A DNA stretch of 64,000 nt, taken from the NCBI RefSeq assembly GCF_017348835.2, contig NZ_CP071375.1; one strand, written 5' to 3'. The number at the start of each line of letters is the position of its first letter. Position 1 is the stretch's first letter. Made by a program: the position numbers. Of the stretch, positions 39,001 through 42,000 are shown piece after piece. The stretch comes from Escherichia coli (lineage in GTDB: Bacteria; Pseudomonadota; Gammaproteobacteria; Enterobacterales; Enterobacteriaceae).

Positions 39001-42000
39001 CGGTTTTCGTGCCAATACGGTCGAGAAAACCGGAGAAAATCAGTACCGCGTCTGGCCCAATGAAATGCCAGCAGATTTGCACAAAATTTGCCCGCATCAC
39101 CCACTAAACCGTAATCTTGATCATAACTGGCAGCAGGCACTGACAAAAACCTCCAGCGAACGTCGGGTGGCGGTAGACATTGAACTGGGCGGTTGGCAGG
39201 AACAATTGATTCTGACTCTCACCAGTGAAGAGGGGGTCAGCATAACGCATACGCTGGATGGGCAGTTCGACGAAGCCAATAACGCCGAAAAAGCAATGAA
39301 CAATCTGAAGGATGGTCTGGCAAAACTGGGGCAAACCCTCTATTACGCCCGCGATGTGCAAATTAATTTGCCGGGGGCGCTGTTTGTACCAAACAGTCTG
39401 TTAAACCAGTTCCGCCGTGAAGCTGCTGACATGCTGGATGCTGCGCGTCTTGCCAGTTACCAGCGCGGCAGCCGTAAACCGGTTGCTGATCCTGCGCCGG
39501 TTTATCCGCAAACGCATCTGAGTTTCCTCGCGAACGTTTACAACCAGAAAGCGCGTGAATTTTATCATCGCTATGGTGTGCAGCTGATTGACGCGGCGTA
39601 TGAGGCACATGAAGAGAAGGGCGAAGTCCCTGTGATGATCACCAAGCATTGTCTGCGCTTTGCCTTTAATCTGTGCCCGAAACAGGCGAAAGGCAATATC
39701 AAAAGCTGGAAGGCGACGCCAATGCAACTGGTAAACGGCGATGAAGTATTAACGCTAAAGTTTGATTGCCGCCCATGCGAGATGCACGTCATTGGCAAAA
39801 TCAAAAATCACATACTGAAAATGCCGTTACCGGGAAGCGTAGTGGCATCCGTAAGTCCGGATGAGCTGCTGAAAACATTGCCGAAGCGAAAAGGGTAAAA
39901 CGCCAGTTTTCTGGTTACTCACAACTTATTGAATCTGCATGATATTGCCTGCCGGGTAAGGCGTTACGCCGCATCCGGCATCAAATGACTCAACGTTGTC
40001 CCGCTTCTGGTTTGCGCGATTTTTGCCAGTAAAAATGCTCGCGCAAACCTTCCGCCGACTCTTCCGCCACAGCACGCAATTCATCGCTGTCCGCTTCATG
40101 ACGCAGCTGATGATCCACATTCTTTACCCACACAAATTCATGTCCTTTGTGCCCTGCCATGAGTTGTCCTGAAAACAGAGCACACGTTAATAAGACAACC
40201 GATAACGCCTTCGTAAACATCCTGCCACCTTTTTCTTACCTTTTGCCGCTATGATGCCGATCGTTTCTTGAGGTTATTATTCAGTTTTGCAAATTAGCGC
40301 AAAGAAATTCTGGAATCTTCCTTCCTGATTTTGCATTGCATTCTGCCGTTGCGGCGATTTAGTGCTATTTTCGAGCAAATTACACACGGAGGTAAACACT
40401 AATGTTTACTTTGTTGATATACTCAGCGGCAGGGAGGCGATGTGAAACAAAGCGAGTTCAGACGTTGGCTCGAATCTCAGGGCGTCGATGTAGCGAATGG
40501 CAGCAACCATTTGAAACTCAGGTTTCATGGGAGGCGCAGTGTCATGCCGCGTCACCCCTGCGATGAGATTAAAGAACCATTGCGTAAAGCAATCCTGAAA
40601 CAACTCGGTTTGAGTTAATCGCCAATTAAAAAGGTTAATGACATGCGAGAGACAGTCGAAATTATGCGTTATCCCGTCACTCTTACACCCGCGCCGGAAG
40701 GCGGTTATATGGTTTCTTTTGTGGATATCCCTGAAGCGTTGACCCAGGGCGAAACTGTCGCTGAAGCGATGGAAGCGGCAAAAGATGCTTTACTGACCGC
40801 ATTTGATTTTTATTTTGAAGATAACGAGCTTATCCCTTTACCTTCGCCATTAAATAGTCACGATCACTTTATTGAAGTACCTTTGAGCGTCGCCTCTAAG
40901 GTATTGCTGTTAAATGCTTTTTTACAGTCAGAAATCACTCAGCAAGAGTTAGCCAGGCGAATTGGCAAACCTAAACAGGAGATTACTCGCCTCTTTAACT
41001 TGCACCATGCGACAAAAATCGACGCCGTCCAGCTCGCGGCTAAGGCGCTTGGCAAAGAGTTATCACTGGTGATGGTTTAATTACAGTTAACGAAAAGTTG
41101 TCATTTTTAACAACTGATATAGACTGCCGAATCATCTGCACATAATTACGATTCGATAATGAAAAAATACCAGCAGCTTGCAGAACAATTACGCGAGCAG
41201 ATTGCGTCGGGTATTTGGCAACCCGGCGATCGTTTGCCTTCGTTGCGTGACCAGGTGGCGCTTTCTGGCATGAGCTTTATGACTGTCAGCCATGCCTATC
41301 AGTTGCTCGAAAGTCAGGGATATATTATCGCACGCCCGCAGTCGGGTTATTACGTTGCGCCACAGGCAATAAAAATGCCGAAAGCGCCAGTCATTCCAGT
41401 CACTCGAGATGAAGCAGTCGATATCAACACTTATATTTTTGATATGTTGCAGGCCAGTCGCGATCCGTCGGTCGTTCCGTTTGCCTCGGCCTTTCCCGAC
41501 CCGCGACTTTTCCCCCTACAACAACTAAACCGCTCGCTGGCGCAGGTAAGCAAAACCGCCACAGCGATGAGCGTGATTGAAAACTTACCGCCAGGAAACG
41601 CAGAACTGCGTCAGGCTATTGCTCGTCGCTATGCCTTACAGGGCATCACCATTTCTCCTGATGAAATTGTCATTACTGCCGGGGCGTTAGAGGCATTAAA
41701 CCTCAGTTTGCAAGCGGTAACTGAACCGGGCGATTGGGTGATAGTAGAGAATCCTTGTTTCTATGGCGCGTTGCAGGCGCTGGAACGGCTACGGCTGAAA
41801 GCGTTATCGGTGGCGACGGATGTTAAAGAAGGGATAGATCTTCAGGCGTTGGAACTGGCGTTGCAGGAGTATCCGGTGAAAGCGTGCTGGCTGATGACTA
41901 ATAGCCAGAATCCACTCGGATTTACCTTAACGCCGCAAAAAAAAGCACAACTGGTGGCGTTGCTCAATCAGTACAACGTAACGCTGATTGAAGATGACGT

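Follow-up and report, generated by a model that had tools for sequence, protein, structure and literature searches.

An intact chromosomal copy of the Escherichia coli hicAB type II toxin-antitoxin operon almost certainly occupies positions 40442-41080 of the window, by which we mean the whole 64,000-nucleotide stretch of DNA that was analyzed. The two open reading frames (ORFs) are co-oriented on the + strand, with the toxin gene hicA first and the antitoxin gene hicB second. Both encoded proteins are 100% identical to those of E. coli K-12 MG1655. The locus is an ordinary copy of a thoroughly characterized system, and it is already known.

The hicAB locus and its genomic setting

An earlier note on this DNA, made from the sequence alone, had proposed a hicAB operon in which hicA encodes 58 amino acids and starts with GTG. 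The genes, with the start of hicB that we favor, are as follows.

40442-40618, + strand: hicA, toxin, 58 amino acids, GTG start; sequence MKQSEFRRWLESQGVDVANGSNHLKLRFHGRRSVMPRHPCDEIKEPLRKAILKQLGLS
40432-40437, + strand: hicA Shine-Dalgarno sequence GGGAGG, separated from the GTG by 4 nt, as read from the sequence
40664-41080, + strand: hicB, antitoxin and autorepressor, 138 amino acids, with an N-terminal HicB-like domain and a C-terminal Xre-type helix-turn-helix (HTH); the spacer after hicA is 45 nt

Profile searches bear out the proposal. The HicA_toxin profile (PF07927 / COG1724) matched HicA with a score of 30.9 bits (cut-off 27, E = 3e-07), with residues 5-57 of the protein aligned to positions 3-58 of the 58 in the profile. 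In the 145-amino-acid ORF that contains hicB, HicB_lk_antitox (PF15919) matched residues 10-74 with 32.8 bits (cut-off 27), and HTH_3 (PF01381) matched residues 95-141 with 31.4 bits (cut-off 23). Since HicA and HicB domains were both found, with all three profiles above their curated cut-offs, the operon reading stands. RefSeq also gives both proteins these names. An NCBIfam scan of HicA and HicB produced no match, but this result is uninformative, because RefSeq still names both proteins.

The experimentally studied K-12 system (hicA b4532/yncN, hicB b1438/ydcQ; PDB 6HPB, 6HPC and 6U0I) has identical proteins. All 58 HicA residues agree with chain 6HPB_A, and the 138-amino-acid HicB is 100% identical to chain 6HPB_B, such that the solved HicA-HicB complex has the sequences of the window proteins. 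Given that both proteins are 100% identical to crystallized K-12 proteins, the identification is far beyond chance.

The host strain itself is nearest to the pig isolate PE164, not to K-12. The window is collinear with positions 2440843-2504842 of the PE164 chromosome, from which it differs at 2 of 64,000 positions, and PE164 was also the best megablast match to 40200-41300 (100%) among 5,426 complete E. coli genomes. In window coordinates, the RefSeq annotation of this near-identical chromosome places hicA at 40442-40618 and hicB at 40664-41080. The corresponding RefSeq proteins, WP_000813794.1 (HicA) and WP_001270286.1 (HicB, 138 amino acids), carry the same accessions in MG1655. Between 39734 and 40992, that is, from upstream of the promoters to approximately codon 110 of hicB, the window and MG1655 show no nucleotide difference. 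Four substitutions relative to MG1655 lie in the 3' part of hicB (at 40993, 41005, 41041 and 41065), and all are silent, as the shared protein accession shows. The flanking genes rlhA (ydcP), yncJ and ydcR are likewise shared with K-12, with hicAB at a fixed site between yncJ and ydcR. The G+C content of hicAB (44-46%) is slightly below that of its flanks (50-53%).

Several other features of the window and its matches were recorded. In the PE164 record, paaC is annotated as frameshifted and paaK as carrying an internal stop (window positions 2296-3041 and 9256-10569); the window is identical to PE164 at paaC and paaK, so this strain appears to have an inactive operon for phenylacetate degradation. 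An IS200/IS605 element at 34314-36021, between ydcL and ydcO, has a tnpA pseudogene with an internal stop beside an intact insQ/TnpB RNA-guided endonuclease gene. Between ansP and yddE, 58087-63475 holds a cluster of genes and gene fragments for type VI secretion cargo, which encode Rhs-type, Vgr family, DcrB-related, truncated DUF6531 and truncated arylamine N-acetyltransferase proteins. When 39900-41300 was searched against Rfam (E <= 1), two sub-threshold matches at chance level were obtained, none of them within hicAB. A sub-threshold match to naRNA4 in the rlhA-yncJ spacer (39950-39989; 28.7 bits, versus a gathering threshold of 59.5) is probably a REP-type repeat. In PLSDB, hicB is 100% identical to a gene in NZ_OL790696.1, a 4.8-Mb E. 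coli "plasmid" record that is evidently a misfiled chromosome.

Start codons and properties of HicA and HicB

The hicA ORF was confirmed at 40442-40618 on the + strand, and its RefSeq coordinates are the same. GTG 40442 is the earliest possible start codon past the upstream stop. It is also the sole start that gives a full HicA domain, because the next in-frame ATG is only at codon 35. A remark in the earlier note that the ORF track had missed this gene is plausible, since 58 amino acids is below the 60-amino-acid default for listing ORFs.

For comparison, we used the two closest plasmid orthologues, the hicAB operons on paIh2 of Arsenophonus nasoniae and on pO23AP4 of Aeromonas salmonicida, which are toxin-first, as here. 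Their HicA proteins (81% and 72% identity, respectively) also consist of 58 amino acids, begin with MKQSEF and have an annotated GTG start. Aeromonas hicA has AGGAGG, 4 nt and then GTG, which is the arrangement seen in E. coli, whereas Arsenophonus hicA has an in-frame ATG directly upstream of the annotated GTG. In the window, an out-of-frame ATG followed by TGA overlaps the hicA GTG (ATGTGA, 40440-40445) and constitutes a minimal start-stop. The idea of a conserved start-stop at this codon was dropped: Aeromonas lacks the element, and Arsenophonus has its ATG in frame. Because it is not kept in these orthologues, the ATGTGA of the window is probably incidental.

Passages of PMC8138530 and PMC11594946 identify His23 as the catalytic residue of E. 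coli HicA. This residue is present in the window protein (...NGSNH23LKL...) and is invariant in an alignment with three orthologues. The HicA fold is dsRBD-like, with the order alpha-beta-beta-beta-alpha (PMC10865869), and we assign this fold through the 100% identity to the solved chain 6HPB_A. K-12 HicA does not need the ribosome to cleave mRNA and tmRNA, and it arrests growth when free, a bacteriostatic effect, according to a passage of PMC11594946 that cites Jorgensen et al. 2009. By identity to K-12 HicA, the hicA gene in the window is predicted to encode a ribosome-independent mRNA interferase toxin.

The hicB ORF ends at 41080, as had been noted before, and the start requires correction. 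The earlier note placed hicB 25 bp after hicA. An ATG does exist at 40643, leaving a spacer of 24 nt (25 is the start position minus the hicA end), but the supported start is ATG 40664. We regard the latter as the main hicB start, in preference to the longest-ORF start at 40643.

It is unlikely that HicB is made as a 145-amino-acid form from ATG 40643, whether alone or beside the 138-amino-acid form. This alternative has the attraction that ATG 40643 is the first start codon of the hicB ORF and that AAGG at 40631-40634, with 8-nt spacing to this ATG, is a better Shine-Dalgarno sequence than any before ATG 40664. Moreover, HicB has been crystallized in a 145-amino-acid form (PDB 6U0I, which is the complete hicB ORF at 100% identity plus a 3-residue tag), and both ATG 40643 and its reading frame are retained in a divergent E. 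coli allele. However, RefSeq and PDB 6HPB both give a HicB of 138 amino acids starting at ATG 40664, and the Pfam HicB domain starts only at residue 10 of the longer form. The Arsenophonus and Aeromonas plasmid HicB proteins (60% and 51% identity, with the same two-domain build) begin with M[R/H]YPV, and their genes follow the hicA stop after spacers of 49-50 nt. Their hicB genes lack a strong Shine-Dalgarno sequence, as is true of ATG 40664 here, and Aeromonas hicB has no in-frame upstream start codon. In tblastn searches, the matches in distant plasmid homologues begin mostly at query residues 7-10, with a few at residues 2 or 6. The preferred product is the HicB of 138 amino acids.

The published mechanism involves both HicB domains. 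As described in passages of PMC11594946 and PMC8138530, HicB binds HicA 1:1 through an N-terminal partial RNase-H-like domain that covers His23, and it dimerizes by its C-terminal HTH to give a HicA2HicB2 heterotetramer. Passages of the same two papers report a Lon-dependent rise in hicAB transcription when cells are starved of amino acids or carbon. The K-12 pair was the first HicAB pair to be characterized experimentally, according to part of PMC11594946.

Promoters, operator and related systems

Because the DNA is identical to MG1655 at 39734-40992, the published regulation of K-12 hicAB is directly applicable to the window. The relevant features upstream of hicA are as follows.

40221-40441, + strand: yncJ-hicA intergenic region with the hicAB promoters, identical to MG1655
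40363-40371, + strand: candidate P1 -10 element, TGCTATTTT, extended -10-like, from a permissive hexamer scan
40392-40409, + strand: candidate HicB operator hicO, a perfect 18-bp palindrome, GTAAAC-N6-GTTTAC
40415-40423, + strand: predicted P2 extended -10 element, TGATATACT, the top score in the permissive hexamer scan

Passages of PMC8138530, PMC11594946 and PMC7167474 describe a two-promoter architecture, with P1 upstream and P2 downstream. In such descriptions, P1 is CRP-S/Sxy-dependent or constitutive, its mRNA serves for translation of both HicA and HicB, and P2 is repressed by HicB. A CRP-S motif and activation by Sxy are reported for P1 in part of PMC8138530. The operator hicO is given as an inverted repeat within P2 in a passage of PMC10865869. 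The leader of P2 begins 1 base upstream of hicA's ribosome-binding site (RBS) in the account found in PMC11878559, and the P2 transcript is truncated at this RBS in that of PMC7167474. Since the P2 transcript starts at the hicA RBS, only HicB is translated from P2 mRNA. This HicB-only transcript brings back an excess of antitoxin despite the toxin-first order. Derepression of P2 is attributed to excess HicA, which strips HicB off the operator (passages of PMC8138530, PMC11594946, PMC7167474, PMC10865869 and PMC11878559).

A default sigma-70 consensus scan did not find a promoter upstream of hicA. A permissive scan for hexamers, in which extended -10 elements were allowed, was used after it. 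The predicted start from the TGATATACT element is at approximately 40430, at the edge of the GGGAGG RBS of hicA. We assigned this element to P2 because a predicted start at the hicA RBS matches the published description of P2. Among perfect inverted repeats with a minimum of 7 nt and a short spacer, the promoter region contains only the palindrome at 40392-40409. It directly precedes the TGATATACT element, and it is the single match to GTAAWC-N6-GWTTAC in the 64 kb. From these sequence features we infer that the palindrome is hicO and that TGATATACT is the P2 -10 element. The TGCTATTTT element is only a candidate for the P1 -10. When 40150-40460 was scored with CRP-N and CRP-S consensus sequences (the latter TGCGA-N6-weak half-site), a convincing site was not found: among 16-mers the highest agreement was only 7 of 10 positions, and among 22-mers it was only 12 of 20 (at 40285-40306). 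The hicA gene is not mentioned in Søndberg et al. 2019 on CRP-S sites.

A GTAAnC-N6-GnTnAC palindrome is present upstream of hicA in Arsenophonus, Aeromonas and E. coli alike, in the same location. The Aeromonas plasmid has two copies of the form GTAATC-N6-GATTAC, and the Arsenophonus plasmid has GTAATC-N6-GTTGAC, overlapping a TTGACA -35 element. The three operons differ in their inter-cistronic spacers. Those of Arsenophonus and Aeromonas contain a stable G/C-rich hairpin (-17.9 and -21.3 kcal/mol, respectively, with z about -3.4), and the E. coli spacer is without one. A comparable hairpin serves as an internal terminator in the hicAB operon of an IncI2 plasmid (PMC11878559).

The IncI2 plasmid system, HicA(T)B, belongs to the same family and shares the toxin-first order and a HicB-repressed P2 (PMC11878559). 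However, its proteins are only about 20% identical to K-12 HicAB, and its HicB has a ribbon-helix-helix (RHH) in place of the HTH of E. coli HicB. Its internal terminator raises the toxin:antitoxin ratio, leading to an addiction or competition function. All of these features are absent here. HicA3B3 of Y. pestis, HicAB of B. pseudomallei and HicBA of S. pneumoniae resemble the E. coli system in having a dsRBD-like RNase whose catalytic histidine is masked by the HicB N-terminal domain, and a HicB that represses its operon (PMC11594946). Their HicB proteins are of the ribbon-helix-helix type and form hexamers or octamers, whereas E. coli HicB has an Xre-type HTH and forms a heterotetramer.

Other parallels are regulatory. 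The mqsRA, higBA and rnlAB systems are toxin-first and use extra promoters to secure an excess of antitoxin, as does hicAB, and in all four the toxin displaces the antitoxin from DNA and is not a co-repressor (PMC7167474, PMC8138530). The protein folds of these three systems are unrelated to those of HicAB. Also, the promoters that serve the antitoxin alone are located within the toxin gene in these systems, whereas P2 of hicAB lies upstream and yields a transcript without the hicA RBS.

Allele variation and possible roles of the operon

Variation of the locus within the species was surveyed in 5,426 complete E. coli genomes, 5,416 of which matched 40200-41300 by megablast. The results are as follows.

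At least 80% of the locus present: 4,217 genomes (78%)
Intact across the site of the 22-bp deletion: 3,268 genomes (60%), from a complementary intact-segment query
22-bp deletion, 40559-40580: up to 813 genomes (up to 15%), an upper bound from a junction query, because the query also picks up a few intact genomes, as two joined pieces
445-bp deletion, 40397-40841: about 1,200 genomes (about 22%)

Direct repeats of 4 bp (TGCG) flank the 22-bp deletion, for which strain A41 was compared. The reading frame of hicA shifts after codon 39, hicB remains intact, and RefSeq flags the hicA gene of this allele as a frameshifted "mRNA interferase". The 445-bp deletion, carried by LF82, takes out the whole of hicA together with half of the candidate operator, the P2 -10 element and the first approximately 59 codons of hicB, leaving an HTH-only hicB pseudogene. 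Through these two specific deletions, about 37-40% of complete E. coli genomes are without hicA.

The earlier note described hicAB as a second addiction or stress module beside hokB and ortT. These two genes are indeed in the window.

23078-23227, - strand: hokB
48545-48718, + strand: ortT

The word "addiction", by contrast, is a generic label that is unsupported for the chromosomal hicAB copy. In the passages of the published work that deal with chromosomal hicAB, the evidence is for stress-induced transcription and for bacteriostatic mRNA cleavage on ectopic expression, not for post-segregational killing.

A role in anti-phage defense by abortive infection, as the main function in preference to a stress response, is quite improbable. 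Defense has been proposed for HicA-domain systems generally on the basis of their genetic contexts (PMC10865869), but the neighbors of hicAB here are housekeeping genes, and a defense island was not seen. A search of PADLOC-DB gave weak matches (E > 0.001), which covered the HTH region only, and a defense-system label was rejected on these grounds. We also did not find experimental evidence for an anti-phage role of this particular locus.

One of the hicA-loss alleles retains full-length hicB together with intact P1, P2 and operator. Instead of neutral decay, this allele could reflect retention of HicB for a function of its own, either as a transcription factor acting alone or as an antitoxin that counters addiction by incoming hicA-bearing elements, although we consider such an explanation unlikely. 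It concerns the species and not the window, whose allele is the ordinary intact one.

A plasmid-style role of hicAB in addiction or competition, by post-segregational killing, is very improbable; the label given in the earlier note would imply such a role. Addictive or competitive behavior has been demonstrated for a plasmid-borne HicAB, in which an internal terminator increases the toxin:antitoxin ratio (PMC11878559). In the window, however, the hicA-hicB spacer (40619-40663) has a predicted folding energy of -7.2 kcal/mol with z = -0.05, that is, no stable hairpin, and a scan with a terminator consensus did not find a terminator-like site. Furthermore, the operon is chromosomal, at the fixed yncJ-ydcR site that was matched in 5,416 of 5,426 genomes, and the frequent natural loss of hicA indicates that the locus is not irreplaceable. 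Finally, the possibility that the locus is a decaying or inactive remnant can virtually be dismissed: inactivated hicAB alleles are common in E. coli (the 22-bp deletion in up to 813 of 5,426 genomes and the 445-bp deletion in about 1,200), but both ORFs in the window are full length, and neither the proteins nor the promoter region differs from K-12, for which passages of PMC11594946 report toxicity and its neutralization.

The operon in the window is best described as an intact hicAB module of the K-12 type. It adds no new biology. Experimental work on the family began with K-12 hicAB, for which structures and a two-promoter circuit are known. The analysis does confirm as real a GTG-started toxin gene of less than 60 amino acids that a length-filtered ORF track would miss. 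For the species, the frequent lineage-specific loss of hicA, together with the missing inter-cistronic hairpin, may provide a population-genetics footnote on the contrast with plasmid versions capable of addiction and on the decay of chromosomal toxin-antitoxin systems.
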